64,000 nt of DNA from Bryobacterales bacterium (GCA_963713415.1 CAVQLV010000004.1:945517-1009516); one strand, 5' to 3'; counted from the stretch's first letter, positions 49,162 to 64,000 are shown. Made by a program: numbers and translations. The notes: a model not told the origin generated them from the sequence alone.

Positions 49162-49986
49162 CGGCAAAGCTGGTTCGATCGCTTTGCTCCGCCAAACCGG
49201 CGGCCAAGGATCATTTTGATCAGCAAATGATCGGTCCCGCGAGTGACGCCGACTCCAACGCCAAAGTTGAACTCCCATTTTGGCGATAGGTTCAAATCTA
49301 TTGCCGGCACGATTTGCTGCTCCTGCTGGTACAGGGGATCAAAGTTTCCCACCGGGCCCAAACTGCCGTAGTACTCCAACCCGGCATTGATCTTCGGCGT
49401 GAAATCGTAACCAGTCTTGAAGTCCGGCGCGAATACCACGCCTTGACTCACGCCCGGCCCGTGGAAGCTCCGATCGAAAACGGGATTGAAAGCCAGATAC
49501 CAGCGCCCGACCTGCTTGTCGATGATTGGCCGGACCTCCAGCGTCCAGGTATCGGGAGAACGACGTAACGTTGATAGCCAAACTCGAGAGAAAGGCTCAC
49601 TCCCACCGGCCATTGCCAGGATTCGGGTATGCGCGCCCTCGCCTGATATGATCTCCCACCCACTGCCAGCCGCCTTGATTGGGATTGACACCGGTGAAGA
49701 TGTAAAGTCCGGTCTCAAACCAACCGGTGATGCCCCTGGTGATTTCGACCGTCTCATGCAACTGGTGCTCGGTCCCGTAGACGCCATCCACTACGCCCTT
49801 GCTGCCCTCAACGGCGAAGTTGCTATGCAACTCGATCATGGTTGTGCCTGGGTCTTGAGTTGCCGAAGGATAGACCTGGAGTTCGTAATTTCCCCGGCCG
49901 AGCGCGCACGCCGCGGAGGCGAGAAAAAGAAGTGCGCCAAGCGCCGCATTGTCGCTGAATCTACCGGGCCACAACGTTTTGACCAT
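49158..49986 (-). pseudogene. Outer-membrane beta-barrel protein (paralog of 53600..54422), 2 frameshifts
   Basis: ORFs 49597..50040, 49448..49663 and 49158..49787 tile one protein: signal peptide, NYELQVYPSAT..., ...RIPESWQWPVGVSLSLEFGYQR..., ...LEYYGSLGPVGNFDPLYQQEQQIVPAIDLNLSPKWEFNFGVGVGVTRGTDHLLIKMILGRRF. Confidence 0.65.
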
Positions 49987-50368
49987 CGACGACACCGGAG
50001 AGAAGAATCTTGCCGTCCGTGGATAAAATGCTGGTTGCATTTCCGTGAGTTAAGCCATCCTTCGCACGGCAGCCTTTGACGATGATCTGCTCGCCGATCT
50101 TGAGCGTTGTCCGGGTCCATCCGGATTTCATCAACGTGTTCGGGCTGCCTGCTTCGAAATCCCAGTTCTCTACCTTGCCGGAGTCTTCCTTCACATCAAT
50201 GTAGAAATGGACATGCGGGTTCATCCAGTCGACGCGGGTGACGGTACCGTGTAGCAAGACGGGCCTTGAAGCGTCGTAGTCTGCTGCGAACGAATGATGC
50301 GCTCGTACAGGAGAGGCAACGATACAAAGTACGCAGGAAAGGATCAGTAAGTAGGGAAGGTTTTCCAA
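49961..50368 (-). CDS. Small periplasmic protein (DUF6152-like), predicted mature N-terminus His-His
   Basis: Signal peptide ...IVASPVRA, then HHSFAADYDASRPVLLHGTVTRVDWMNPHVHFYIDVKEDSGKVENWDFEAGSPNTLMKSGW. Paralog at 58377..58781. Confidence 0.8.
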   Translation of the reverse strand: MENLPYLLILSCVLCIVASPVRAHHSFAADYDASRPVLLHGTVTRVDWMNPHVHFYIDVKEDSGKVENWDFEAGSPNTLMKSGWTRTTLKIGEQIIVKGCRAKDGLTHGNATSILSTDGKILLSGVVDGQNVVAR

Positions 50369-50384
50369 GGTCTGGTCAGCTTCC

Positions 50385-50915
50385 TCAGCGCTTCGTGACG
50401 GTTTGAGGGGCCTTCCCCTCGTGCGGCTCGTAGTATCCGATCAGCCGGCCGCAAATCGGTATACTCACCCACAGTATCAGCGAAAGGACGGCGGCAGCTT
50501 TCGCACGTGTGGGTATCGCTGGGGCCTTGTCCAACTCCTCGGGGTGATCGTACACGATGGGTTTAAAAATTAGCGCATGAACTCCAACTAGCAGCAGCAG
50601 CGTCATCTTTGTCCAGAAATAAGGATTGGGATAGTACGTCGGAGCCTCCGAGCCGGCCATGAGAAGCCCGCAAGTGACTATAATCACAAAGCCAATGCGC
50701 TTATAGGGCCGCAGACCTCCTACAACTTCCGCTATGCTCTGATCGCGCAAGGCTAAGCCGAGCAGGCGCAGATCGGTCATCAAGATCATGCCGCCGAACA
50801 CGGCAATGCAACTCACATGCGTGGCCATGATGATGGGATAGACCCACGGAGTCTGCTCAATGCCGGTCATCAAGCTGGTGCTCTGGATCGATTGAAAGAT
50901 GGAATAAAGCGACAT
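50385..50915 (-). CDS. Polytopic membrane protein, type B (B1) of a repeated A/B pair
   Basis: YPIIMATHVSCIAVFGGMILMTDLRLLGLAL...YYPNPYFWTKM...LVGVHALIF...RAKAAAVLSLILW...GRLIGYYEP. Paralogs at 59600..60133 and 60558..61187. Confidence 0.8.
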   Translation of the reverse strand: MSLYSIFQSIQSTSLMTGIEQTPWVYPIIMATHVSCIAVFGGMILMTDLRLLGLALRDQSIAEVVGGLRPYKRIGFVIIVTCGLLMAGSEAPTYYPNPYFWTKMTLLLLVGVHALIFKPIVYDHPEELDKAPAIPTRAKAAAVLSLILWVSIPICGRLIGYYEPHEGKAPQTVTKR

Positions 50916-50921
50916 TGGATA

Positions 50922-51398
50922 TTACGCCAGAAGTCCGGTGAAGAGCCCACCCGTCACCACTGAGACCCACAGCAATACCGAGATGGCTCCCACCACGACG
51001 CCCACTCCAGGGGGCGGGGACGACGAAGCCACCTTGTAGTGGACGGTGTAGTTATAGAGGATCGCGAGGAGCAGCGCCGCTGCCTTGAACCGGAACCAGG
51101 GGCTGAAGTAATACATGCGCGGATCCGTCAAAAACAGCCCCATCCCTGCAAGCACCGTGACCGACAACCCGATCAACGTGTACGCCCAAGTTTCGTGCAG
51201 CAGTTTGGCGGGAGTTGTTCTTGGAAACGCCAAGCCAAGAAGACGCAGGTCTACGATCATAATCGTCCCTATAGCCACGGCGAAAAAGACGATGTGAAAA
51301 CACTCCGCCACCGCGAAGCCCCATTCGGTGTTGTTCAGCAGGTCGGCTATTGCATTCGATTGGAGAAAAGCCGGGGAAGCTACAAATAGATGCATCAC
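50922..51398 (-). CDS. Polytopic membrane protein, type A (A1) of a repeated A/B pair
   Basis: NNTEWGFAVAECFHIVFFAVAIGTIMIVDLRLLGLAF...FLTDPRMYY...YNYTVHYKV...LLWVSVVTGGLF. Paralogs at 60149..60601 and 61208..61663. The ATGA overlaps the upstream gene. Confidence 0.8.
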   Translation of the reverse strand: MMHLFVASPAFLQSNAIADLLNNTEWGFAVAECFHIVFFAVAIGTIMIVDLRLLGLAFPRTTPAKLLHETWAYTLIGLSVTVLAGMGLFLTDPRMYYFSPWFRFKAAALLLAILYNYTVHYKVASSSPPPGVGVVVGAISVLLWVSVVTGGLFTGLLA

Positions 51399-52033
51399 TT
51401 CGCGTCTTGGATCTCCAGATCCGTCTTCTCGTCGCCCGCCATCATCTTCGCGTTGTCGTAGAATCCCGCGGTCACCAGATGAATCTCGACCTCCTTCTTA
51501 CCTTTGTTTTCCCAGAACCAGCCGTGGATGCCAGTGGAAGGCGCGGTGAATGAGCCGCCGGAATGATCTGAGCCGCCCTGATCATTAAGTTCGTAGCTCT
51601 CGAAATAGTCCTTGTTCGGCTTGTTGTCCGGCTCACCGTGGAATTCGAACGCTACTGGCCCCGTGGCTTTCCAGGAGTAAAGCATGCCGGCGGCTTTCTG
51701 CATATGATACTTGACTTCGACGCCTTCGCCGGGCATCAGTGAAAGATCCTCGCTGTCGGTTTTGAAAATTCCGGGCTGCGCGGTGTAAATGCCCGCCGGC
51801 GCGGCGACGGGCCGTGCGCCAACGGGCTTCGATTCCGCCGTCGATTCGGTGGCTTTCGCAAGATCGGTCAAATGCAGTAGCTTGCCTGTCTTCAGCGGAT
51901 CGATCCCATATTCGGCGGGCAGCACGGCCGTCAATAGAATCACGAGCGCGACTGCTAGCGCGATCCCGGTGGCTTTCGCGATTGCTTGCTTCGACGGTGC
52001 CTCCGCCCGCTGAATGTTTTCCTGTTTAACCAT
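51395..52033 (-). CDS. Membrane-anchored periplasmic protein, function unknown
   Basis: ATG at 52033 with AAGGA 6 nt upstream. TM anchor GIALAVALVILLTAVL. Beta-rich domain with FEFHGEPDN and GIHGWFWEN. Confidence 0.7.
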   Translation of the reverse strand: MVKQENIQRAEAPSKQAIAKATGIALAVALVILLTAVLPAEYGIDPLKTGKLLHLTDLAKATESTAESKPVGARPVAAPAGIYTAQPGIFKTDSEDLSLMPGEGVEVKYHMQKAAGMLYSWKATGPVAFEFHGEPDNKPNKDYFESYELNDQGGSDHSGGSFTAPSTGIHGWFWENKGKKEVEIHLVTAGFYDNAKMMAGDEKTDLEIQDAK

Positions 52034-52040
52034 ATAATCC

Positions 52041-52748
52041 TTACGCGGCGGCAAAATAGCCAGTGATCTGATAACCCACCAGTATGAATCCTACGGTCAT
52101 CAGCACCGCGTTCGTCGCAAACGCGTCCCGCAAGAAACTGCCGCGTGTGCGCCAGACGCTCAACACGATCAATATGGCGGTCAACGCCAGCACCTGGCCC
52201 ACTTCCACGCCGACATTAAAGCTTACGATGTTCGTAATCAAGCCGTTCTTTGAGAGAGCCAACTCCTGCAGTTTGGTGGCGAGTCCAAATCCATGAAACA
52301 GGCCGAAAATGAGCACCGCCACTTTCGCATTCGGCTCGAACCCCAGAAACCGCCGAAAGCCATCCATGTTGTCGAACGCTTTGTAGACCACCGAAAAGCC
52401 GATGATCGCATCAATGACGTAGGGGTTGGCATGAGCTCCTCCGAGGACTCCACCCAGCAGCGTGATGCTGTGACCCAGCGTGAACAGACTGACATACTGA
52501 ACGATCTCTTTGAGCCGGTATAAGAAAAAGATGACTCCCACCAGGAAGGCGATGTGGTCATACCCGGTCACCATGTGCTTCGCGCCCAAGTAGACGAAAG
52601 CAGGGATTGCGGCCCCCTGATTCGATTCGACAAAAGACGCATCGCGTTTCGAGACGTTGTGCGCCATGGCGGCGCCGGGAAACACGAGCATCGCGAGGAT
52701 GAAGAGAATCGCCGCAGCCGCGGCCAAGCGGCGAGATAGGGCGGTCAT
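52041..52748 (-). CDS. hupE: HupE/UreJ-family membrane protein
   Basis: Signal peptide ...GAAMA, then HNVS..., GYDHIAFLVGVIFFL, FTLGHSITLL, FGLFHGFGLA, NVGVEVGQ. The start at 52748 overlaps the upstream stop (ATGA). Confidence 0.8.
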   Translation of the reverse strand: MTALSRRLAAAAAILFILAMLVFPGAAMAHNVSKRDASFVESNQGAAIPAFVYLGAKHMVTGYDHIAFLVGVIFFLYRLKEIVQYVSLFTLGHSITLLGGVLGGAHANPYVIDAIIGFSVVYKAFDNMDGFRRFLGFEPNAKVAVLIFGLFHGFGLATKLQELALSKNGLITNIVSFNVGVEVGQVLALTAILIVLSVWRTRGSFLRDAFATNAVLMTVGFILVGYQITGYFAAA

Positions 52749-53296
52749 TTGCACCGATCCGCCAGGTCCGGCTTTTCGCGCCATTTATCGTGGCAGTTGG
52801 AGCAAGCCGTGCTCAAGTCTCCCGCCGCCGTTACGATGTCGTCCTTCTTGGACTGTGCGGCCTTGTAGCTCTCAAGGCTCGCGGCCCGCAGACCCTGGAC
52901 GAATTTAGGCCAATCCGGGTTGTTGATCGGAACTGGAAGCCCGTTACCGCATTTGCGCCCGGGAAGAATCAGAAGATTGGCGGCTTCCGAAAGAGCTCTT
53001 GCACTGTTCTCCACAGCCGTCCAGCCGCCGTAGGTACTGGCAAGAGGATTCGGCGACAGCGAGGGGTCCTTCGCCGGCGGCACCTTGGCGGGATCGTCTT
53101 CTTGAGCGAAAAAGATCACATTAGAGTTGGGGAAGAGGATACCGCGCATGAGCTGGCGCAAGTCTGCAACGACCTCCGGTTTCATGGCCGCCGATTTGGG
53201 AGCCTTGGCCGCGTTGGAGCGGGCTGGCCCCGGCGATTGCGCCTGGCAGACTCCCAAGATGGTTAGAGAGAAGAAAGCTGTTACTATGCGAGACAT
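52745..53296 (-). CDS. Class II (cytochrome c'-like) c-type cytochrome
   Basis: Signal peptide. Single CSNCHDKWR heme motif about 15 residues from the C-terminus, preceded by long helical segments. This is the class II cytochrome c layout. Confidence 0.65.
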   Translation of the reverse strand: MSRIVTAFFSLTILGVCQAQSPGPARSNAAKAPKSAAMKPEVVADLRQLMRGILFPNSNVIFFAQEDDPAKVPPAKDPSLSPNPLASTYGGWTAVENSARALSEAANLLILPGRKCGNGLPVPINNPDWPKFVQGLRAASLESYKAAQSKKDDIVTAAGDLSTACSNCHDKWREKPDLADRCK

Positions 53297-53583
53297 TCCT
53301 GGTGACCTTTCATACCAGCAGACTTACTCTGGCGGTTCGCCTTTCCACGACTTCATGGCCTGCCACATCGGTGGGCTGGGGCGCCTAAAAAAATCCCTCA
53401 TCCATTTGCTTTTCCCACCCGCGTTCGAGGCTCTGCGAGTGCGCCTCGTCCCCTTCACCGAAACCTTTGAGCGGCGTCGCACGCTGTGCCCCTCCCCGAG
53501 AGTTGATTTGTTCATGGACAGACAGACCTGGAAAGGGTATCACTGAGTTACCCGAAATCCATGGCTCTCATAGTCATCGAGCG

Positions 53584-53603
53584 GTCAGTGACCGGTCACT
53601 CAC
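53584..53603. promoter_or_regulatory. 20-bp palindrome, copy 1 (GTCAGTGACCGGTCACTCAC)
   Basis: Near-perfect inverted repeat, about 290 bp upstream of the cytochrome c' operon start. Related copies at 61782-61801 and 62704-62723. Confidence 0.55.
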
Positions 53604-54422
53604 CATTGCGATTCATGGGTTTGCCGCCTATCGTGCTTCCGGCCGAACTCATATTCCAATCGCGACTTGAGCACCAGCTCATGACTCCCGTCCGTAGTGC
53701 CGAACCCCGCTCCGAAGCTCCAGGCGAACCGTGCTCCGATCTTCCAATCTGCTCCGGGAAACACCAGGTGGGTCTGATTTGCCAGTGGCGAGAAATTTCC
53801 GAGCGGTCCCAGCGCTGAGTAGTACTCGACGCTCGGCGTCAGGGTTCGCCATTGTTGCCATCCCAGCCTGGCCGATGGCTCCACGCCCCAGCCGAGCGAG
53901 GTCCCCGTGCCGTGCAGCGCCCGGGCGAAGACGATATTTCCGTCCATTTGCAACCGTCCGATGTGCTTCTCAACGATCCCGCGCAGCTCCACCTGCCGCG
54001 TGTCCTGATCGAAGACCGGACGTTCGAACGAAAACTCGGCCACGAACCCCAAGTTCAACGGCAAGCCCCAGGACTTCGGCGCGTAGAAATGCGGAAGCAC
54101 CCGAAAGCCGGCATACTGCCAGCCGAGGCCGGGAACCCACGCGGTCAGAACAACGGCGCCAAAGCGTACTTCGTCGGTCAGGCCGGCTGTCCATTCCGAG
54201 CTCGCATGCAACTGATTCTGCTCCGGTGCCACAGGCCCATCGAATTTCGCCGTCCCATCGGCCACATAATGTAACATGCGACTCATAGGTAAGTGAGCCG
54301 AGCGGCAGAGGCTCATATTCAAATACTTGAATCTCAAATGGATCTTGTGCATAAGCAGCAAGACCGATCGACAGCAATAGCCATCGACAGCAATACATAG
54401 ATCCTCCTAATCGCGAACTCAA
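53600..54422 (-). pseudogene. Outer-membrane beta-barrel protein (paralog of 49158..49986), 1 frameshift
   Basis: ORF 53970..54422 (signal peptide, DPFEIQVFEYEPLPLGSLTYESH) joins ORF 53600..54361 (LHYVADGTAKFDG...VEYYSALGPLGNFSPLANQTHLVFPGADWKIGARFAWSFGAGFGTTDGSHELVLKSRLEYEF) near 54270. Confidence 0.65.
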
Positions 54423-54437
54423 GAATCGAGCGGGCGA

Positions 54438-54731
54438 TTAGGAGCGGGGAGGATGATCGAGACGCGGCGCAGGCTTTTCGGTCAGCTGGGGGACAGGGGC
54501 CGGGGTGACGCGCTCGATGAGAGACGCGACAAAGCTATGCGTGCGCGCCGGAAACCCGGTATGGAGCGAGCAATAGGCGCAATCGTGGCAGGAACAATCG
54601 GAACCGCTTGGCGTCGTAGACCCAGCGTAGTGGTCGTGATAGTCCTCGGCCATGCACACGGCCATCTGGGTGCAGATGGCCATGAGCACAAGTAGCGCCA
54701 GCCAGCGAATGAGGCTCCTCCTCCGAGGCAT
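54438..54731 (-). CDS. Small membrane-anchored Cys/His-rich protein
   Basis: 97 aa. TM helix IRWLALLVLMAICTQMAV, then EDYHDHYAGSTTPSGSDCSCHDCAYCSLH. It lies directly downstream of the TBDR. Confidence 0.6.
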   Translation of the reverse strand: MPRRRSLIRWLALLVLMAICTQMAVCMAEDYHDHYAGSTTPSGSDCSCHDCAYCSLHTGFPARTHSFVASLIERVTPAPVPQLTEKPAPRLDHPPRS

Positions 54732-54757
54732 TCTTGAAAACCCGTTCTGCGAGCCGC

Positions 54758-57700
54758 TCAGAAGCGCAGCTTCACGGCAGCCTGCATTAAACGAGGCGCG
54801 GCCGCGCTGACCACGTGTCCGAAATCGGGATCGGAGTCCACGCCCTCCACGGATTGCGGTCCATAAAACTGCGCATGGTTGAAGACATTGAAGGCTTCCA
54901 TCCGGATATCCAGGGTCATCGATTCTCTAAGCCGGATGATCTTGCTGAGCTGCACATCGAAGTTTTCGATGCCGGGCCCTTGGAAGCTGCGCCGGCTGGA
55001 ATTGCCCAATACTCCCAAGGGCTCCACCTCGAAAGCGCTGGTATTGAATACCGGCTTGCCGTTGCGGGGATTCTCGTTTAGGTTGAGCGGGCCGCCCAAG
55101 TACTCGGGCGTGTCTAACAAATAGTTATTCACGCCGTTGCCGAGGGTTCCCAAGAGTGAGTTGTCGGAGTTGTCAATGAGCGTCACGGGCAGCCCAGAGG
55201 AAAAACGGCTGGTGCCGGACAAGCTCCATCCATCGGTCAGGCGATTCCGCCCAAAGAAGCGCTCGAATGGCAGATTGTACGTGTACGTGATGACGACATT
55301 CTGAGGGATGTTCCAGGCCGAAATCGCGCGAGTCAATCCCAGGTTGAAGGGGTTAGTGTCCTCGCCGAGGTACGATGCATCATCGATGGACTTGGACCAG
55401 GTATAGCCTACCAGGAGCGTGGAGCGTGAGCCGATGGTCGCGCGAAGGGTAATTTCCAGCGAGTTATAGTTGGAATTTCCGATGGTCTTTTGCAGCGTGA
55501 CCGATCCGTAATCCGGTCCAAGGCCGACACGCGTGCCCTGGTACGTCTGTCCGGATGCGGATGTATAGCTGGCGTCCTCACCGTAGGGACCGCAAGTCAG
55601 TGTGCCCGGAGCTACCTGGCTCGGTTGGCTCAGGCTCAGGCATAGTGCCGCGTTTCCGTTATTGGCTGGCTGTAACACCAGGATGTGATGGCCCTGGTTC
55701 CCTGCATAGCTAACCGTGAGCAAAGTGTTCTGGCCGAACTGCCGTTGAACGGAAAACATGTAATTTTCCGTGTAGGGCACGGTGTCTTTGGAATAGAATT
55801 CGGGCGCCGCGCTGATCGGCGTAACCGCGGCCCAATCAAATCCGGTATAGGGGTCCTTTTGAGAGACGTTGTTGGGAGGAAAATGAAATGGATAGGGATC
55901 GGTTTGCACCACTCCGTCGCCCGAATCGATGAAGGGCTGGGCGAACTCGGGAGGAGCGGGGCTCAAGTAGTTGTATCCCCACGGTGGCACGCCGTACATG
56001 ATGCCGGCGTCGATGCCCTGGAAGGCGGTGTAGAAGATTCCGTAGCTGGCCCGGATGCTGCTCTTGCCCGATTCGCCAAAAATCGCCTTCAAAAATCTAT
56101 TTCCAAAATTTGGAGAATAGGCTAGTCCGATCCTGGGCGCGAAGGCGTGATTGTCTGGAGGCGAGAGAGTGGGAGGAATGCCAGGGTCGCCGGGCACCAG
56201 AAGGTCAGGCAATGCGTTGGGGAAAAGAACCGACTGCCGGCCGGGAACGATGGTCTGAAGGTTGTTGTATTTGTCCGACCAGGGCTCGATCCGCTCCCAC
56301 CGCAACCCGTAATTCACCGTCAGGTTCGGCCGCGCTTTCCAGCTATCCTCAACGAACGCGGCGTAATAGCGATTTCGCAGATAGAAATGCTGGCCGGTGG
56401 TCTGGGTGAAATTGCTCGGCAAGCCCAGCAGATAATCGGCGAACGGCGATCCGGTCTCGGACCCAAGGAAGCTGAACGTTCCGTTAAAGGTGCCGTTCGG
56501 ACTTTCATTGACCTGGTTGTTATGAAATTGAGCGCCAAACTTAATCGTGTGCGCGCCCCACACCTTTGAGATGGCATCGCTCAGATAAAGCGTATTGTTC
56601 CATTGATCCGCGTTGGTAATAGGAACGCCCATGACGAAGTCTGGGAAGACCAGGTTCTCCACGCCTTCAAACTGCGGCGCTTGCACCACGAGGCCCCCGT
56701 TTTGAGGTCCTTGGACGAATCCCTGCGAGGCTATGGATACTCCGGTTCCTCCGTGAGGTTGTCCAATGAAATTCACGTTCCGCAGGAAGCCGGCATGAGC
56801 TTCGTTGACCATGGTCGGGCTTAGGATCTTGGTGTCGCCAATGCTGATCTCCTGCGCCTGTCCGGGGGTCAGGGCGTCAAAGCCAGGAACGCTTGCACCG
56901 CCCTGTCCGCCCGGATATGGATTGTCCACTATGTAGTTGTCGACGAAATAGTAGCCGAAGATATTGCCGGCGCGCGTGTTGGCGTCGATGCGGGCGCCAG
57001 CCTTGTCGTCCCGGTCTGTTTCAGGGAAGGCCGACGTAGAAAAAAGGTTGGAACCGATGTTCGCAGTGGGAATGTATTTCAGCAGGTTATGCGCGACCGG
57101 CGACCAAACCGATTGGGGAATGATTGCTCCGGGGAATACGCATTGAGAGCTGGACCCGCAGCCCGGTGTATAAAAGGGTTCGCCCACGTTCACGTTATAG
57201 CCGAGCTTGGATGCCAATTGGCCCGCCTGGTAGGCCGCAGGCACGGTCCCGGTCAACAGGCTGGCCGAATCGCTAAAGTTGCCGGCGCGCTCCTGATTCG
57301 ACATAACCGTGGTTACCGGCGATGTGATGCCTTGCGTGGTCTTGGTGTGCTGATAGTCCAGGAAAAAGAAAAGCTTGTTTTTTAGGATCGGCCCGCCGAT
57401 GGTACCGCCGGGCTGATTCTGCTGGTAGAGCCCTCGCTTCGCGTCAAAGAAGTTCTTGGCATCCAGGTCGGTGTTCCTAAGGAACTCGAAAGCGCTGCCA
57501 TGGAATTGGTTGCTCCCGGACCGGGTAATGACGTTGACCATTCCGCCGTTGTAATTGCCGTACTCCGTGTCGAAGTTGTTAGTTAGGACCCGGAACTCCT
57601 CGATCGAATCCAGGTTCGGAATCACGGACGTTCCGCCGTTCATCCCTTCCTGGACGTCGATCGCATTCACCATGAAGCCATTGGCAGATTCGCGTTGTCC

Positions 57701-58291
57701 ATCGATGGAAATGTTACCGGGATTCAAGGCGCCGGATGGATTGATGGTGCCAGTGACGCCCGCCATGATGATGGACGTTGGGGTCGAGGTTGTGACAGGG
57801 GTGACGCCTGGTTGGATAGCAAGAAGGTCGGTATAACTACGACCGTTCAGAGGAATCGCCTGAATCTGCTGCTCTGATACCACCTCGCCGAGGTGGGTCG
57901 CCACCGTATCAGGCTGGGTTTGCAAGTTCTCTTCCGAGGCGGACACCGTGACCGTCTCGGTTTGCTCACCGACCGATAATTCTGCGTCTAGCGTTACGGC
58001 GGCGTCTGTGTCGATGGCAATATTGGTCTTCTTCTGTGGCTTGAAGCCGGTGGCGTCGATGGTCAGGTCGTACTTGCCGACCGGAAGTGCGGGAAAAGAA
58101 TAGGATCCGCGGGCGTCTGAGATGGTCGTAAACTGTGCCTTGGTGTCCACGTTCACTAAGGTGAGCTTGCCGCCGGAGATCACGGCGCCAGTGGGGTCTT
58201 TCAGCACGCCGGAGAGGCTGCCAGCGGCGAACCCCCACAATACGGAGGCACAAAAGAGTGACAACGCGATCTGCACCAGACGTTCGATCAT
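54758..58291 (-). CDS. Large TonB-dependent receptor with a CarboxypepD_reg N-domain (1177 aa), intact
   Basis: Start trimmed to the ATG at 58291 (MIERLVQIALSLFCASVLWGFAAGSLSGVLKDPTGAVISGGKLTLVN...). Plug and barrel motifs. C-terminus ...LMQAAVKLRF*. Confidence 0.9.
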   Translation of the reverse strand: MIERLVQIALSLFCASVLWGFAAGSLSGVLKDPTGAVISGGKLTLVNVDTKAQFTTISDARGSYSFPALPVGKYDLTIDATGFKPQKKTNIAIDTDAAVTLDAELSVGEQTETVTVSASEENLQTQPDTVATHLGEVVSEQQIQAIPLNGRSYTDLLAIQPGVTPVTTSTPTSIIMAGVTGTINPSGALNPGNISIDGQRESANGFMVNAIDVQEGMNGGTSVIPNLDSIEEFRVLTNNFDTEYGNYNGGMVNVITRSGSNQFHGSAFEFLRNTDLDAKNFFDAKRGLYQQNQPGGTIGGPILKNKLFFFLDYQHTKTTQGITSPVTTVMSNQERAGNFSDSASLLTGTVPAAYQAGQLASKLGYNVNVGEPFYTPGCGSSSQCVFPGAIIPQSVWSPVAHNLLKYIPTANIGSNLFSTSAFPETDRDDKAGARIDANTRAGNIFGYYFVDNYIVDNPYPGGQGGASVPGFDALTPGQAQEISIGDTKILSPTMVNEAHAGFLRNVNFIGQPHGGTGVSIASQGFVQGPQNGGLVVQAPQFEGVENLVFPDFVMGVPITNADQWNNTLYLSDAISKVWGAHTIKFGAQFHNNQVNESPNGTFNGTFSFLGSETGSPFADYLLGLPSNFTQTTGQHFYLRNRYYAAFVEDSWKARPNLTVNYGLRWERIEPWSDKYNNLQTIVPGRQSVLFPNALPDLLVPGDPGIPPTLSPPDNHAFAPRIGLAYSPNFGNRFLKAIFGESGKSSIRASYGIFYTAFQGIDAGIMYGVPPWGYNYLSPAPPEFAQPFIDSGDGVVQTDPYPFHFPPNNVSQKDPYTGFDWAAVTPISAAPEFYSKDTVPYTENYMFSVQRQFGQNTLLTVSYAGNQGHHILVLQPANNGNAALCLSLSQPSQVAPGTLTCGPYGEDASYTSASGQTYQGTRVGLGPDYGSVTLQKTIGNSNYNSLEITLRATIGSRSTLLVGYTWSKSIDDASYLGEDTNPFNLGLTRAISAWNIPQNVVITYTYNLPFERFFGRNRLTDGWSLSGTSRFSSGLPVTLIDNSDNSLLGTLGNGVNNYLLDTPEYLGGPLNLNENPRNGKPVFNTSAFEVEPLGVLGNSSRRSFQGPGIENFDVQLSKIIRLRESMTLDIRMEAFNVFNHAQFYGPQSVEGVDSDPDFGHVVSAAAPRLMQAAVKLRF

Positions 58292-58376
58292 TCTAGTACG
58301 CTCATCATTTGTAAAATCCTTTGGCGTTTTGCGCCAATTTCTAAGCAAGACCGCGAGCCCACTGCGATTGTGTGAC

Positions 58377-58781
58377 TTAGTGCCCAGGGGTTGACTCAGG
58401 GGCGATGCCATCCAATACCTTGTGCCCGTTCGCCAGAATTACTTTCCTGGCGGTTGCAACGTTCGCCCCATCGCGCGCCGGGAAGGCTACGACCGTGACC
58501 CGGTCGCCGACCTTCAGCGTGTCGCGCAGCCAGCCCATCCGGGCCAAGGTATTCGGGCCCGCTCCCTCAAAGGCCCAATTTGTAACTTTCTGACGGGCGT
58601 CCTTCACGTCCACATAAAAGTAGATATGCGGGTTGCTCCAATCCACCCGCGTAATTACACCGGAGTAGGTAATCTGCCGATTCACATCGAACTCAGCCGA
58701 AACGGAATGGTGAGCAAAGATGGGGGCCGCTGCTACCAGCAACAGCCCCGAGGGGAAGAGAATCGCTAACTTATGTTTCAT
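58377..58781 (-). CDS. Small periplasmic protein (DUF6152-like), predicted mature N-terminus His-His
   Basis: ATG at 58781. Signal peptide ...AAAPIFA, then HHSVSAEFDVNRQITYSGVITRVDWSNPHIYFYVDVKDARQKVTNWAFEGAGPNTLARMGW. Confidence 0.8.
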   Translation of the reverse strand: MKHKLAILFPSGLLLVAAAPIFAHHSVSAEFDVNRQITYSGVITRVDWSNPHIYFYVDVKDARQKVTNWAFEGAGPNTLARMGWLRDTLKVGDRVTVVAFPARDGANVATARKVILANGHKVLDGIAPESTPGH

Positions 58782-58883
58782 CTGGCACAAACCTCGTGAA
58801 GTCTGCAGAGCGAGGCTACCACGCGGGCGGCGCAAATTAGACGAATCGAAGGTCAACTTTTGGTCATTGACGCTCGAAACGTG

Positions 58884-58910
58884 GTCACTGACCCGTGCAA
58901 ATCATTTGCA
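58884..58910. promoter_or_regulatory. Operator candidates upstream of the DUF6152-TBDR operon: palindrome half-site + 7-1-7 Fur-family-like box
   Basis: GTCACTGACC (58884-58893) equals the left half of the 20-bp palindrome. TGCAAAT-C-ATTTGCA (58896-58910) is a perfect 7-1-7 inverted repeat, 115 bp upstream of the ATG at 58781. Confidence 0.45.
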
Positions 58911-59599
58911 TCAAGGGAGATAGCGCAGCGAGTCCACGGGGGCGTGCGGCAAGGGATGAACGATCCAAGTTTCGGTTTTAGCTTGCGTTCACGTCGTCAC
59001 CTCGGCCGCAGGAATGATGGGTGCGAAACCTGCGCTTGCTTCTAACCCTTCGTCACTGAACGGCAAACGACCCGTTGAAGAGTAAGGTCTTAAGGTTGCC
59101 CGCGCTCCTGGTGCGAGTGAACGACACCTCCGATTCAGCCCTGTACATCGACCTGAAAACCGTGCGCCTGGTGGAAGCGTACGGACGGCGGTCTCGCATC
59201 AACCGGTTCCCGCTGGGGCGTAGGCACTTGTCTAAGCATCAATTCAGTGATTCTTGGCTTCGAGCTACAAAGGGCGGTCAAGTGGCTGTGACGTGCTTCA
59301 TGGGTACCCAAAGCAATCCGCGCCAACAGATCGCGCTTTCGCACGGCGGCGGGACCAGGTTTACCAAGCCGATAGTGTTGAACACCGGCCAAGCGTTCGG
59401 CTATACCTCGATGGCGCTGAAGCAGGATGGCGCGAAGGCCCAGGTACGACAAGTGAGCTCCCAGGGAGTCGCTGGGACGGTTGCAGAAGTTGCCAAAGGA
59501 GGCTTTTGGCAGCCCGGCGACTCTTTGATCGCTTCCGGCAGCGCCAAGCACATCGAGACAGCCAGTCTCGGCGTCAAGCAGCGAGCGCTGTTGCGGTCG

Positions 59600-60133
59600 C
59601 TATTTGGTTTGCGCGGTCGAAACCACGTGGCCTTTTTGCTGAGGCGGTTCGTAGTAGCCGATGAGGCGGCCATTACAAAGGACAGCGGTCCAGATGATTA
59701 GCGAAAGCGCCCCCGCAACCTTGGCGCGCGTGGGAATCACCGGAGACGCATCCAGCTCCTCGGGATGATTGTAGACCAGGGGCCGGAAGATAATCGCGTG
59801 GATCAAAACCAGCACCAGACACGACATCTTAACCCAGAAGTAGGGATTCGGATAGTAATCAGCGGCCTTTGAGCCGAAGAGCGTGAATCCCATGGCGAAC
59901 ATAATGATGAAGCCGGTGCGTTTCCACCAGCGCAATCCGTTTACGACGTCGGCGATGGTTTTATCCTGGAACCCCCACCCGAGCAGCCGCAGATCGGTGA
60001 TCACGATCAGGCCGCCGAAGATCGCGATACACGTCAGATGCGTGCTCATGACGATTGGATATTCCAAACCGGACTCGCGGATAAAGGTCATGAAGCTCAG
60101 GCTTTGAAGCCATTGAAAAAGTTCGAGAATCAC
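59600..60133 (-). CDS. Polytopic membrane protein, type B (B2)
   Basis: YPIVMSTHLTCIAIFGGLIVITDLRLLGWGF...YYPNPYFWVKM...LIHAIIF...RAKVAGALSLIIW...GRLIGYYEP. Confidence 0.8.
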   Translation of the reverse strand: MILELFQWLQSLSFMTFIRESGLEYPIVMSTHLTCIAIFGGLIVITDLRLLGWGFQDKTIADVVNGLRWWKRTGFIIMFAMGFTLFGSKAADYYPNPYFWVKMSCLVLVLIHAIIFRPLVYNHPEELDASPVIPTRAKVAGALSLIIWTAVLCNGRLIGYYEPPQQKGHVVSTAQTK

Positions 60134-60148
60134 ATTTGCCTCCAGGCG

Positions 60149-60601
60149 TTACGCGAACGCGATGAATAGACCACCGAATACGACGCTGATCCATAGCGCC
60201 AAAGAGATGATGGCGGTTGCGACCCGCACCGGCTTGGTCGCGGTGTCCGACTTGGCGATCTTCCAATGAATCGTGAAATTAAAGATGAGCGCGATTGCGA
60301 GCGCGTACATCTTGAAGACGAAAGACGGATTGTTAAGGTACATCCGCACATCCGACAGAAAGAGAATGGGGCCAGACAGGAGCACGACCGCGAGCCCAAT
60401 AATGGTCCAGGGCGCCGTGTCGCGCAAAACCTCCGAGGGTTTGGAATGCTGAATACCGAAGCCCAGCAGCTTGTAATCAACTGCGGCGATCATCCCGATC
60501 GACCAGGCGAAAGCCGCTATGTGAAAGCATTCAGCGATTGGAAAAACCCATTCTGAACTATTCAGCGCGTCCGCTACGGATTGTATTTGCAGAAGCAACA
60601 T
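60149..60601 (-). CDS. Polytopic membrane protein, type A (A2)
   Basis: NSSEWVFPIAECFHIAAFAWSIGMIAAVDYKLLGFGI...FLSDVRMYL...FNFTIHWKI...LALWISVVFGGLF. Confidence 0.8.
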   Translation of the reverse strand: MLLLQIQSVADALNSSEWVFPIAECFHIAAFAWSIGMIAAVDYKLLGFGIQHSKPSEVLRDTAPWTIIGLAVVLLSGPILFLSDVRMYLNNPSFVFKMYALAIALIFNFTIHWKIAKSDTATKPVRVATAIISLALWISVVFGGLFIAFA

Positions 60602-61187
60602 CTTGGTGGTCCTGTCCTTTCACTGTGTGTCTGTTCACCGAGCGCGCCAGCATCGCCCAGCTGGCTCCATGGACTTCCGCATGGATCTTGTCGAGCGGTG
60701 GCTCGATATAGCCGATTCCCCGCCCACAGCAGGCCACCGCAGTCCAAAGGAGGAGGGACAGAGTGGCCGCTACCTTGGCACGCGATGGCGCGGTTGAAAG
60801 ACGGTCGAGCTTGGCGGGATCGGCATAAACGCTCCGGTAGAAAACTACAGCATGCACGATCAGCAAGCCAAAGAGAATCAGCTTGGTTCGAAAAAACGCG
60901 TTGTAGTAGTACTCTTCGGCTTTCGAGCCGAACAGTAGAAATCCGCAGGTAGCGGTGAGCAGCAATCCCCAGCGCTTCGGTACGCGGAACTGGTTGACGA
61001 CGTCGGCGATAGATCTTTTCCGCATAGCCCAGCCGAGAAGCCGCATATCCGTCATCAGGATCATCCCGCCAAAAAAGGCTATCCCCACCATGTGCAGCGA
61101 CATGACGATCGGATAGACGTCGGCTGAGCCGCGGAGCGCAGTAAAAAAGCTGGTGAACTGAAGCCATTGAACCAATGAGAGCAGCAT
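60558..61187 (-). CDS. Polytopic membrane protein, type B (B3) with an extended C-tail
   Basis: YPIVMSLHMVGIAFFGGMILMTDMRLLGWAM...IVHAVVF...RAKVAATLSLLLW...GRGIGYIEP. The 3' end overlaps A2 by 44 nt. Confidence 0.75.
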   Translation of the reverse strand: MLLSLVQWLQFTSFFTALRGSADVYPIVMSLHMVGIAFFGGMILMTDMRLLGWAMRKRSIADVVNQFRVPKRWGLLLTATCGFLLFGSKAEEYYYNAFFRTKLILFGLLIVHAVVFYRSVYADPAKLDRLSTAPSRAKVAATLSLLLWTAVACCGRGIGYIEPPLDKIHAEVHGASWAMLARSVNRHTVKGQDHQDVASANTIRSGRAE

Positions 61188-61207
61188 GGGACATTCAAAT
61201 CTCGTGT

Positions 61208-61663
61208 TCAGATTCCGACACTCAAGCCCGGATAGATGAAGCCGATGAAAATACCGCCAAAAATGACGCCCGCCCAGAGAATAAGAGAGATGCAGGCAAC
61301 CGCCTTCCCGTTATGAGGCGGCGACTCCGATACCAAAGCTCGCCGATGAATGGTGTAATGAAAAACCACGGCCGACACAAAGACAGCCATCTTGATAAGG
61401 AAAGCCCAGTTGAGATAATAGCTGTCCGGGTCCGAGGAGAATAGCAAGAGACCGGAGAACAGCATCAGCACCAAGCCGCTGAGCGTCCACAGCCAGGTAT
61501 CCTTGGCGAGCTCGGCAGGCGATTCGCGCGTCCCGGCAACGCCGAGGAGTGAAAAATCCACGATGGCGATGGTCCCGATCGAAATCGCGAATCCGACGAT
61601 ATGGAAGCACTCCAGGATTGGGAAGACCAGTTCGGATGAGTTTAGCGGATTAGTAATGAACAC
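61208..61663 (-). CDS. Polytopic membrane protein, type A (A3)
   Basis: NSSELVFPILECFHIVGFAISIGTIAIVDFSLLGVAG...FSSDPDSYY...FHYTIHRRA...LILWAGVIFGGIF. Confidence 0.8.
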   Translation of the reverse strand: MFITNPLNSSELVFPILECFHIVGFAISIGTIAIVDFSLLGVAGTRESPAELAKDTWLWTLSGLVLMLFSGLLLFSSDPDSYYLNWAFLIKMAVFVSAVVFHYTIHRRALVSESPPHNGKAVACISLILWAGVIFGGIFIGFIYPGLSVGI

Positions 61664-61781
61664 TTGAGTCGGCGAATAGAACGATCGGCACCACCGCCCG
61701 GTGGTGATATGTCACGCTTTTCACGCGTTTAACTATAGCAAAGCTACCGCCTTTGCTAACGCCTCGTGGGGTCACCTTTCG

Positions 61782-61801
61782 GTCAGTGACCGGTCTGTGA
61801 C
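61782..61801. promoter_or_regulatory. 20-bp palindrome-related motif, copy 2 (GTCAGTGACCGGTCTGTGAC)
   Basis: About 120 bp upstream of A3 (start 61663). 19/20 identical to copy 3. Further inverted repeats flank it: CACCACCG-CC-CGGTGGTG (61689-61706) and TAGCAAAG-N7-CTTTGCTA (about 61735-61757). Confidence 0.55.
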
Positions 61802-62261
61802 CGCATATCCTAAACGGCTTCCGTACCACTGGCCACAAAGCTCTTCAAGCCATTCAATCTCTCGTGCTCCGACCACGCCGCGTTCGCTGCTTGGCAAGTA
61901 CCAGGTTCACAGGAACGCGCTCGACGGCCTGAAACTAGGTACCGAGCTTGCCTTTCTCGGACAGATCAAGCAAGCCCTCGGATTGTGTGCGTCAGTTATC
62001 CGGATGTGATCGAGGAGCGACGAATGTCGTGGTGGTGTAAGGGCGCGGTCCAGGAATCTGTTTGACGGCCCTCTATTTTGATAAAGCCTCCGGACTCCTC
62101 GTTCGGGAAATCCGCTTAGGCCGTGCGCTGATCGCCACAGTGTCGATGGCTTCAATGATGGGTGTTATCCTCCAGCGTGGTGAATGAGAGCCATGCGGTG
62201 ATCGCATTCCAGCCGGCCTGGGGTAAAAGGCGGCAATGCGCACTGCGGAGCCGCAACGCCA

Positions 62262-62640
62262 ACCATACGCCAGTCTCATTGGTTGTTCCAGGCTTTCGAT
62301 GCAATCCCCACAATCGGTATTGTTTGCGTGGGGGGGACCATCGTAGATCTCCGGCTTCTAGTTTCACCTTACGGAGACTTCGGGTGTCGGAAGTCAGGTC
62401 GCGATTGCGCCACTGATTCGGTGGAGCTTTTAACTGGATTGCTCCTGTTCTCGTCCGAGGCCATGCAGATGTATGACAATCCGGCATTGCAATTGTGTTT
62501 CACGGGATCATCTAGCAGGATGTCTCCAACTGGGACGAGGATCCCACGGCTCCTCCTGATGCCGGACTCGCGGATTTGCTATCGCTTGTATTTGGATCGC
62601 AATCATTGGGGCGGGACGTGCAATTGCCTGCCAGGCCATT
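62262..62640 (+). pseudogene. Decayed fourth copy of the type-A membrane protein, on the opposite strand
   Basis: Fragments in three frames: SLVVPGFRC, then FQAFDAIPTIGIVCVGGTIVDLRLLV...LLTGLLLFSSEAMQMYDNPA, then IAIVFHGII...ADLLSLVFGS. These parallel ELVFPILECFH / IGTIAIVDFSLLG / LFSSDPDSYY / FHYTIH / ISLILW of A3. Confidence 0.55.
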
Positions 62641-62703
62641 CCTATGGCGACTCGGAAGATCCGGTCACGATTAGCCGTGCGGTATAAAGTTTCCATACCA
62701 GGA

Positions 62704-62723
62704 GTCACTGACCGGTCTGTGAC
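62704..62723. promoter_or_regulatory. 20-bp palindrome-related motif, copy 3 (GTCACTGACCGGTCTGTGAC)
   Basis: 71 bp upstream of the coxB GTG at 62794. Confidence 0.55.
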
Positions 62724-62793
62724 GTGTCCTGTCAGTTCTCTCCTTGACCCCCGCCGGGTGTGCTGTTTAAACTTATGATCGCCCAGGAAGACG

Positions 62794-63738
62794 GTGCACG
62801 CTCTCTTCAGTTCTCATTCCGCCCAGACCCAATCAATTAACTCGGTTTTCTCGCTCGTTCTCATCATCGCAGCGGTGATTTTTCTGATCGTCGCCGTGGG
62901 CGTCTGCTACAGCATCGTGCGGTTCCGTTCCCGCCGTCCATTCTCCGACGATGCCGCCGCAACCCCTGAGCCACGCCAGATCTTCGGCTCGCCTAAGCTC
63001 GAAGTTCTCTGGACCGTCGTCCCGATCGCCATCGTCACCGGGCTGTTCGTCGTCACCGTCCGCGCCATGGTGTTCATCGACGCGCCGCAGGATTCGCCGC
63101 GTTCGCCCGATATCGTCATCACCGGCCATCAATGGTGGTGGGAAGCCCGCTATCCCAACAGCGTCGTGACCACCTGGGATATCCACATCCCTGACTCGCA
63201 CCGTCCGCGCGCCCGAATCGAGTCGGGCGACGTGATTCACGACTTCTGGGTGCCCGAGCTCGCGCGAAAAATGGACGCCGTCCCCGGACGCTGGGGTTAC
63301 ATCTGGCTGGAAGCCGATTCGCCCGGCGTCTACGCCGGCACATGCTCGGAATTCTGCGGCGCCGAGCACGCCTGGATGCGCTTCCGCGTCATCGCCGACA
63401 GCCAGCCGGACTTCGACGCCTGGATGATGCGCCAGGCCCAGTCTTCGCCCGCGCCTGCCGGAATCGCCGCCGAAGGCGCGCGCCTGTTCCAAACCAAGAA
63501 ATGCGCCGATTGCCACACGGTCGCCGCTACCGCTCCCAGCTCCAGTAAAGGATCCAGCCTCGCGCACCTGGCCACGCACGAGACGCTTGGCGGCGGCATT
63601 TCGCCCAACACGCCCGCGAACGTAACCCTATGGCTCACCGATCCCGAGGCCGCCAAGCCTGGCAATCGGATGCCTTCGACGCCACTCTCAACGGATGAGC
63701 GGTCCGATTTGCTTGCCTGCCTGGAGTCGTTACGATGA
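62794..63738 (+). CDS. coxB: Cytochrome c oxidase subunit II with a fused C-terminal cytochrome c domain
   Basis: Two TM helices. HDFWVPELARKMDAVPG. CuA site CSEFCGAEHAWM. Heme c site CADCH. The stop overlaps the next start (ATGA). Confidence 0.9.
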   Translation: MHALFSSHSAQTQSINSVFSLVLIIAAVIFLIVAVGVCYSIVRFRSRRPFSDDAAATPEPRQIFGSPKLEVLWTVVPIAIVTGLFVVTVRAMVFIDAPQDSPRSPDIVITGHQWWWEARYPNSVVTTWDIHIPDSHRPRARIESGDVIHDFWVPELARKMDAVPGRWGYIWLEADSPGVYAGTCSEFCGAEHAWMRFRVIADSQPDFDAWMMRQAQSSPAPAGIAAEGARLFQTKKCADCHTVAATAPSSSKGSSLAHLATHETLGGGISPNTPANVTLWLTDPEAAKPGNRMPSTPLSTDERSDLLACLESLR

Positions 63739-64000
63739 CCGCCTGGCTCGGCGCCATCGATCACAAACGCGTCGGCATCCTCTACATGCTTTCCGCGCTC
63801 CTATTCTTTCTGGCCGGTGGCATGGAAGCCATGGTGATGCGAGCACAACTCGCCGCCCCGCGTCTCCAGCTCATCACCCCCGAACTCTACGACCAGATGT
63901 TCACCATGCACGGCACCACCATGATTTTCCTGGTCACCGGCACCATCTTCTGGTGGCCCATCTTCGGCCCTCTTCGGGATTGCCATCTCTCCCCGCTCGC
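63735..64000 (+). CDS. ctaD: Cytochrome c oxidase subunit I, N-terminal part (runs off the window)
   Basis: Own translation: MTAWLGAIDHKRVGILYMLSALLFFLAGGMEAMVMRAQLAAPRLQLITPELYDQMFTMHGTTMIFLV.... Not in the ORF track because there is no stop inside the window. Confidence 0.85.
   Translation, partial: MTAWLGAIDHKRVGILYMLSALLFFLAGGMEAMVMRAQLAAPRLQLITPELYDQMFTMHGTTMIFLVTGTIFWWPIFGPLRDCHLSPL

Follow-up and report, generated by a model that had tools for sequence, protein, structure and literature searches.

A 20-bp palindrome as the probable operator of a metal-uptake and oxidase regulon in Bryobacteraceae, with a transmembrane protein as its candidate reader

The DNA analysed here, hereafter the window, is a stretch of 64 kb (C4:945517-1009516) from the genome of a Bryobacterales bacterium, an uncultured organism known from sequence as a metagenome-assembled genome (MAG) of 8.74 Mb, with 22 contigs and 59% G+C. 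Labels beginning with C, L and G designate contigs, loci and genomes, respectively; G000 is the host genome, and C4, C9 and C17 are contigs of it. The window carries genes for DUF6644 and DUF6152 proteins, a cytochrome-c'-like protein, a TonB-dependent receptor (TBDR) and cytochrome c oxidase, together with three copies of a 20-bp palindromic element (the 20-mer). Judging from its distribution and conservation, this element is very probably a genuine operator with a regulon, and the protein encoded at 45769-46950, termed c25, is proposed as its reader. The target operons, recognized from open reading frames (ORFs) and Pfam domains, and the operator copies are the following:

49961..53296, minus strand: target operon 1, encoding a cytochrome-c'-like protein, HupE_UreJ_2, a 219-aa protein (p219), DUF6644 A1 and B1, and DUF6152
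53584-53603: operator copy 1, GTCAGTGACCGGTCACTCAC, 1 mismatch from the perfect palindrome
53600..58781, minus strand: target operon 3, encoding DUF6152_2, a 1217-aa TBDR, a DUF2946 (CruR-like) ORF and a 253-aa protein
59600..61663, minus strand: target operon 2, encoding DUF6644 A3-B3-A2-B2, downstream of copy 2
61782-61801: operator copy 2, GTCAGTGACCGGTCTGTGAC, 2 mismatches from the perfect palindrome
62704-62723: operator copy 3, GTCACTGACCGGTCTGTGAC, 3 mismatches from the perfect palindrome
62794..64000, plus strand: coxB (intact, 314 aa), then a truncated ctaD joined to the 3' portion of ctaG

Copy 1 lies 5' of target operon 1, whose cytochrome-c'-like product gives a sub-threshold Pfam match and holds a C-terminal CxxCH, while copy 3 lies 5' of the window coxB. 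Copies 2 and 3 share 19 of their 20 positions, the sole difference being at position 5. When up to 3 mismatches to the perfect palindrome were allowed, the three copies were the sole matches in the window, and 100 dinucleotide-preserving shuffles of it gave none. The preliminary description of this DNA had placed the 20-mers at the same positions with the same degrees of identity, had noted a half-site at 58884-58893 (GTCACTGACC) and had seen no copy in the parts read closely outside 53.5-62.8 kb; all of this holds, the last point now for the window as a whole. Its statement that each copy sits 5' of a transcription unit also stands for all three copies, but the unit that it called coxB-ctaD is a deletion derivative.

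Throughout the 8.74-Mb assembly, seven sites are credible: the three in the window, one further along C4, two on C17 and one on C9. The four outside the window are:

C4:1010716: site 4, 1.2 kb beyond the window end, homolog of C17:39206
C17:34383 and C17:39206: sites 5 and 6, found in the genome scan
C9:208234: site 7, weaker, GTCACTTACCGGTTTGTTAC, then TGACC, then TGTTAGGCT

The C9 site (region C9:204977-208655) is located between a cytochrome-c'-like gene and a gene pair for DUF6152 and an 857-aa TonB receptor, an arrangement that is canonical in other genomes. A scan with a position weight matrix, which is partly circular because the matrix was derived from pattern-selected sites, scored six sites at 28-34 bits, the C9 site at 22 bits and all other matches at 19.5 bits or less. 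Among these weaker matches, C2:2050, C16:37735 and C15:2888 fall inside copies of a repeated coding gene and C6:172979 has no regulon-type gene near it, and all four were taken as chance. The shorter 9-mer GTCAnTGAC is not enriched genome-wide (84 observed versus ~116 expected). The 20-mer is a rare motif, and the genome-wide search and position analysis called for at the outset place all seven sites in promoter regions of functionally related operons.

Beyond the host genome, 10 of the 24 congeneric genomes have one to three occurrences of the pattern GTCANNNACCGGTNNNTGAC, as against none of 16 genomes from other genera of the order, with 0-1 matches for a reversed-pattern control; the congeners that lack the motif have no site even when 1 mismatch is allowed. 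A scan of 200 genomes from 140 genera of the family returned good sites only in the genus of the window and in a second genus, g48, plus two single matches elsewhere, which is the control rate (the reversed pattern matched ~7 of the 200). With a stricter pattern, all GTDB species yielded ~50 loci from Bryobacterales, Bryobacteraceae or Terriglobia MAGs, and ~30 scattered matches in unrelated phyla, versus ~35 estimated by chance. Within 450 bp, 42 of the 53 acidobacterial sites face the 5' end of a DUF6644, DUF6152, TBDR, coxB, cytochrome-c'-like or CtaA-like gene, while only one of the 30 non-acidobacterial loci faces such a gene. This exception, a locus under the label Bordetella, is probably mis-binned; the cytochrome-c'-like gene that it carries is 64% identical. 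The association of site and gene thus recurs in two genera and in the ~50 MAG loci.

At the mapped loci the site falls in intergenic DNA before the 5' end of coxB, DUF6644, DUF6152, TBDR/HupE, cytochrome-c'-like or CtaA-like genes. In g48, sites precede two TonB receptors and one DUF6152/DUF6644-like operon; in G003, the ortholog of copy 1 precedes the cytochrome-c'-like gene (L028:600). Spacer alignments display the 20-mer as a near-invariant block in diverged DNA (9 coxB spacers, 10 orthologous or paralogous DUF6644 spacers and 5 TBDR spacers), that is, the site is kept at orthologous promoters while the spacer around it changes. The operator of a dimeric regulator, defining a regulon that links the DUF6644/DUF6152 module to cytochrome c oxidase, had been the initial proposal, and the search, these footprints and the recurrence of the association all support it. 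The TBDR-class sites (L004, L007, L013, L020 and L034) are also accompanied by a conserved cTGAAAACa block ~15-20 nt upstream of the 20-mer; this block might belong to the end of the DUF6152 gene before it or be bound by a second protein.

The consensus of the 20-mer reads GTCAC-T-G-ACC and GGT-C-A-GTGAC on the two sides of the dyad, with GTCA, ACCGGT and TGAC invariant; these were the bases fixed by the pattern that supplied the 31 distinct sites used for the symmetry test. Positions 5-7 and 14-16 vary mirror-symmetrically, are complementary in only 42-65% of the 31 sites, and leave only two of these as perfect palindromes; nor does Rfam hold any match to the element, which is situated upstream of the predicted -10. 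The lack of pairing covariation at the variable positions indicates selection on base identity, and hence a dyad-symmetric protein rather than a hairpin.

When 69 non-redundant sites were oriented towards the gene that they face, TGACC appeared at +8..+12 in 58-72% of them, giving a third, promoter-proximal half-site in 11-bp phase. An extended -10 (TGnTAnnnT) follows ~31 nt beyond this half-site, without a good -35, in the DUF6644, DUF6152, TBDR and cytochrome-c'-like classes. The corresponding elements in the window are:

53572..53577, minus strand: third half-site of copy 1, ATGACT, 6 nt past the 20-mer
53534..53542, minus strand: predicted extended -10 of copy 1, TGATACCCT, ~32 nt past the third half-site, proposed by analogy with TGnTAnnnT and absent from the promoter-scan output
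61770..61775, minus strand: third half-site of copy 2, GTGACC
61732..61759, minus strand: sigma-70-like promoter after copy 2, TTAGCA-16-TATAGT with a TG extension, from the promoter scan
62744..62773, plus strand: promoter-like sequence after copy 3, TTGACC-18-TAAACT, from the promoter scan

The 31-bp operator of the DUF6644 class is GTCACAGACCGGTCACTGACCGAAAGGTGACC. Relative to the predicted promoters, the 20-mer would span about -76..-57 and the third unit about -48..-44, so that the operator would extend from about -76 to -44. The coxB class differs in that TTGACC is the -35 itself, with the 20-mer 10-60 nt upstream, and both TTGACC and a TAGACT-type -10 are kept in 9 genomes. An 18-nt block (CGATAGTAGACTGAGGCC) is also found downstream of TTGACC in nearly all coxB leaders (e.g., L002:9455-9475). 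It probably spans the -10 and the transcript start, and is conserved beyond the requirements of a -10.

Five genomes have full sites before the TBDR ortholog, in the counterparts of target operon 3, while the window has the following element before DUF6152_2 and the TBDR:

58851..58893, minus strand: putative degenerate operator, GGTCAGTGACC, N14, AATGACC, N5, TTGACC, as read from the sequence

Its TGACC-type units lie at 58883-58893, 58862-58868 and 58851-58856 on the minus strand (i.e., at 0, +21 and +32), the half-site 58884-58893 being included, and a -10-like TAGCCT (58813-58818) is found 32 nt past the last unit; we infer a degenerate operator from this architecture as compared with the other sites. 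Adjoining it is a perfect 7-1-7 inverted repeat, TGCAAATCATTTGCA, at 58896-58910. Allowing up to 2 mismatches, this repeat has 19 matches genome-wide, compared with 5-9 for two scrambled controls, and it may be a box of the universal Fur, in which case the DUF6152/TBDR promoter would be under dual control. The DUF2946 ORF of the same operon (97 aa, 54438-54731 on the minus strand, with the motif CSCHDCAYC) is situated between the genes of the TonB receptor and the 253-aa protein and, by analogy with CruR, might subject the next gene to an additional, translational control.

The candidate reader of the operator is encoded in the window as well, 7 kb from the palindrome:

45769..46950, minus strand: c25, 393 aa, with a winged helix-turn-helix (wHTH)-like region (1-110), a transmembrane (TM) helix (133-159) and a periplasmic alpha/beta region (179-385)

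The AlphaFold model of c25 starts with helices and a beta-hairpin at the N-terminus, continues with a single long, hydrophobic helix (133-159) between low-confidence linkers, and has a confident alpha/beta domain (179-385) at the C-terminus. The layout of a single TM helix followed by a sensor domain that is predicted to be extracytoplasmic agrees with that of the ToxR/CadC-like regulators. For residues 1-112 the best Pfam match is PF00486 Trans_reg_C (E=0.007, 16.8 bits versus a 26.2-bit cut-off), covering residues 66-86, the recognition-helix region; the best Foldseek match of the N-domain is the CadC DNA-binding domain 5ju7 (E=1.7, TM score 0.45-0.47 over 92 columns). The stretch VVRMHVARLRQKL...PKGGFRVTF is similar to the helix-3/wing signature of OmpR/PhoB effectors. 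A fold search with the whole protein gave BcsB and flavodoxin-like matches to the periplasmic domain, all of them weak (TM score < 0.3) and uninformative. Across 37 homologs, Cys198 and the sequence S-M-D-S-M-P (367-372) are invariant and His307 is nearly so; all of them are possible soft-metal ligands. All of the 120 homologs listed lack a name or are annotated as 'hypothetical protein', and no Pfam domain occurs in any of them.

The distribution of c25 follows that of the operator. Full-length orthologs with 59-64% identity are present in nine of the ten motif-bearing congeners, the tenth genome being 69% complete. Among the motif-less ones, G008 has only frame-broken pieces, G010 an N-terminal fragment of 60% identity that adjoins the end of a contig, and the remainder only weaker, mostly N-terminal matches. 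Orthologs are also found in G217 and in both g48 genomes (49-53% identity), while the other 196 family genomes have no match at E<=1e-50 among the nine candidates scored in each. Gene order points in the same direction. In G007 the order is c25, cytochrome-c'-like gene, site, DUF6152 and HupE, with the c25 stop adjoining the cytochrome start; in G217 it is c25, cytochrome-c'-like gene and DUF6152, with a p219-like gene preceding c25; and in G023, c25 lies 1.4 kb from the TBDR site. In nine MAG loci the c25 stop is followed after ~20-160 bp by a site and then, where the locus reaches so far, by a DUF6152 or DUF6644 operon. Altogether, c25 is within 4 kb of 13 of the 53 sites, versus ~0.3% expected (an estimate for one or two copies per 6-Mb genome). 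A 77%-identical metagenomic relative even has a three-unit site (GGTCACAACCA GGTCATTGACC GGTAACTGACC) ~100 bp upstream of c25. Both co-occurrence and gene adjacency lend strong support to c25, the wHTH-like protein that had been one of two candidates named from the beginning, and somewhat more probably than not it is the protein that binds the operator.

The host genome holds a second copy of c25 (C4:1459962-1461107, 62% identity), also with a p219-like gene before it, and no motif or regulon gene was found within 25 kb around it. The p219 protein may be a partner of the regulator.

The explanation that we favour as the reasonably probable one is that c25 reads the 20-mer core of an operator controlling a metal-uptake/oxidase regulon, which would be common to a subclade of Bryobacteraceae. 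This regulon would comprise a caa3-type oxidase operon (coxB-ctaD-ctaE/G-CtaA-like), CopD-like membrane pairs of DUF6644 A and B, periplasmic DUF6152 proteins, TBDRs with HupE, and the cytochrome-c'-like protein. As a membrane-anchored one-component regulator, with one TM helix between a cytoplasmic winged helix and a periplasmic sensor, c25 would place two winged-helix domains head-to-head on the palindrome, with the protein on one face of the helix, and a further protomer or dimer would contact the proximal TGACC at about -46. Bound c25 would then recruit RNA polymerase to extended -10 promoters lacking a good -35.

A precedent for such an arrangement is CadC from E. coli, where modelling and solution data support two DNA-binding domains bound head-to-head to the quasi-palindromic Cad1, and activation from upstream by recruitment of RNA polymerase (PMC5430869). 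The predicted topology of c25 is that of the CadC/ToxR type (PMC5430869; survey in PMC10269533), its N-domain finds its best structural match in the DNA-binding domain of CadC, and the regulator gene lies beside a target operon in both cases. However, c25 has no significant sequence similarity to CadC, and its periplasmic domain is unrelated to the pH/lysine sensor of that protein. The operator is also GC-rich (GTCAnnnACCGGTnnnTGAC) instead of AT-rich, has an extra proximal half-site, would occupy about -76..-44 rather than -153..-113 as Cad1 does, and serves respiratory and metal-uptake genes.

The sites of PhoB/OmpR proteins, known as pho boxes, are direct repeats with 11-bp phasing that replace the -35. 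The elements described here resemble them in having TGACC/GTCA-type units at 11-bp phase, two or three deep, upstream of promoters without a good -35, and in a binder that is probably of the OmpR/PhoB winged-helix class. Unlike in a pho box, the conserved and variable columns of the 20-mer are mirror-symmetric and not head-to-tail, and neither a receiver domain nor a partner kinase accompanies c25.

The periplasmic domain would sense the cue, which is probably copper, another metal or the redox supply for oxidase biogenesis. A cue related to copper or oxidase biogenesis is suggested by the DUF2946 ORF, by the DUF2214-related (reportedly CopD-like) DUF6644 proteins, by the CtaG and CtaA-like genes, and by the decayed czcA and multicopper-oxidase genes beside the window c25; copper itself is a tentative choice among the possible signals. 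In Bordetella, the DUF2946 protein CruR is a copper-responsive upstream ORF preceding the copper TonB transporter gene (CrtA/BfrG), with the PepSY_TM protein CrpH, and copper control is post-transcriptional, through the nascent DUF2946 peptide (PMC9426467, PMC12914433, PMC13038864). A TonB-dependent receptor and a DUF2946 ORF are common to both systems, as are PepSY_TM neighbours and a functional link with cytochrome c oxidase, and this overlap in gene content suggests that the regulon supplies copper to an oxidase. They differ in that the control proposed here works through a DNA operator with a membrane regulator dedicated to it, and in that DUF6644 and DUF6152 are not part of the Bordetella system.

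Several observations speak against this explanation. The wHTH assignment of c25 is sub-threshold by every method used, and the full-length protein matches nothing in Pfam, NCBIfam or the PDB, whether searched as a single sequence or as a profile. The family search for c25 rested on nine scored candidates per genome, and its co-occurrence with the site may reflect one or two evolutionary events, given that the target genes share the same phyletic pattern. In the window, no site accompanies c25, the nearest being 6.6 kb away, and the genes on either side of it are decayed. The distance of 10-60 nt between 20-mer and -35 in the coxB class varies in a manner unusual for an activator that depends on the face of the helix, and the link to copper is based only on family associations (DUF2946/CruR, CopD-like DUF6644 and CtaG).

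The same regulator and operator might also act by repression, released by the signal, which we consider a doubtful though serious alternative. Palindromic operators are typical of repressors, the coxB class has a good -35 (TTGACC) and -10 (TAGACT) that need no activator, and a site upstream of c25, as in the relative mentioned above, is what negative autoregulation would look like. In the DUF6644, DUF6152, TBDR and cytochrome-c'-like classes, however, the operator ends ~31 nt before the -10, clear of both the -10 and the start, and the combination of an extended -10 with the lack of a good -35 is the signature of activator-dependent promoters; the known ToxR/CadC-type proteins are activators as well (PMC5430869). 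An operator upstream of the core promoter points to activation, which on balance appears a little the better supported mode.

It is unlikely that the operator, although genuine, is read by another protein, namely the Fur-family protein encoded divergently from the C17 coxB or some other cytoplasmic factor. TonB receptors are classic Fur-family targets, the Fur-like 7-1-7 box (58896-58910) abuts the degenerate site, and in G000 (C17), G005, G006, G007, G016, G022 and G023 the coxB-class site is located between coxB and an operon of c16, Fur and a SpoIIE phosphatase. Nevertheless, of the 24 congeners searched, 23 have this Fur at 82-96% identity, motif-less ones included, and it occurs across the order at 54-70%; in G003, G014 and G015 the gene and the sites are on separate contigs. 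It is implausible that half of the genus would lack sites altogether if the regulator were universal, whereas a clade-specific c25 accounts for this absence. In terms of the boxes themselves, those of Fur, Zur and Nur also precede TonB-receptor and metal genes as palindromes, one class of sites being next to a Fur-family gene here, but they are AT-rich and of the 7-1-7 (19-bp) type, while the 20-mer is GC-rich with an even 10/10 centre and a different phyletic pattern, and does not qualify as a Fur box. As the main candidate binder, Fur was rejected by the phyletic and linkage test. As for other readers, no other regulator gene recurs near the sites, and two ORFs of 127 and 160 aa located between Fur and coxB have neither a coding-like GC pattern nor a family match.

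That the 20-mer is a dispersed repeat, a recombination site or a hairpin (terminator or attenuator) without any sequence-specific regulator is highly improbable: its near-perfect 20-bp palindrome, the position of the C4:1010716 and C17:39206 class directly after the CtaA-like stop (a possible terminator spot) and the inversion of the window DUF6644 cassette relative to C17 would fit such an element, but there are only seven copies per genome, promoter-associated and with unrelated flanks, most copies are imperfect palindromes without compensatory changes or an Rfam family, the flanks read have no T-run and no terminator is listed at the window sites (scan of 53200-63000), and the strict link to one set of gene families holds across genera. 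A repetitive extragenic palindromic (REP) sequence, a miniature inverted-repeat transposable element (MITE) and a structured RNA were likewise discarded, considering the seven copies, the unrelated flanks and the 42-65% complementarity.

Turning to the oxidase genes, the intact arrangement is that of C17, where Fur and the SpoIIE phosphatase (divergent) are followed by a site, coxB, ctaD, ctaE/CtaG, the CtaA-like gene, a second site and four DUF6644 genes. The 20-mer before the C17 coxB is identical to copy 3. Identity between the window cluster (62794-64000 and L001:2806-5221 = C4:1008322-1010737) and the C17 cluster is ~73% in coxB and in the CtaA-like part, and 68% in a short ctaG segment. 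A deletion of ~2.27 kb has taken most of ctaD, ctaE and ctaG's 5' half from the window cluster, leaving a 168-aa ORF with matches to both the N-terminus of COX1 and the C-terminus of Caa3_CtaG. By this comparison, the oxidase genes of the window are a rearranged, decaying duplicate of the C17 operon that has kept its promoter site, which corrects the annotation of the window.

Other signs of gene decay are found around these clusters. The 0.9-kb gap between copies 2 and 3 contains a frame-broken DUF6644-like remnant (62283-62687; …GTIVDLRLL…LLFSSEA…), and several other genomes of the genus have in-frame stops in their DUF6644 genes. The C17 ctaD (L002:10418-12029 = C17:35418-37029) is split over two frames near L002:10677-10700, either by a real frameshift or by an indel error of the assembly, the rest of the operon being intact.

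The logic of the system (regulator, operator and regulon) is ordinary, while the triad itself is undescribed and belongs to uncultured Bryobacteraceae, a family where, to our knowledge, no regulon has been mapped so far. The literature searched contained nothing on DUF6644 or DUF6152 and nothing describing the motif or the regulator. The c25 family might, as a more speculative extension, represent an undescribed class of transmembrane regulators with a new sensor domain for periplasmic copper or redox state, activating via GTCAnnnACCGGTnnnTGAC a copper-acquisition/oxidase-biogenesis regulon of uncharacterised components. If this is true, DUF6644 (CopD-like pairs), DUF6152 (His-His proteins) and the cytochrome-c'-like partner would acquire a functional handle, and the GC-rich palindrome would join the short list of targets of membrane-anchored one-component regulators. 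A 31-bp operator probe and a named candidate protein are now at hand. By tying DUF6644, DUF6152, the 219-aa protein and the c25 family to cytochrome c oxidase and TonB/HupE importers under one control element, the proposed regulon would turn scattered hypothetical genes of abundant uncultured soil and peat Acidobacteria into one testable module.

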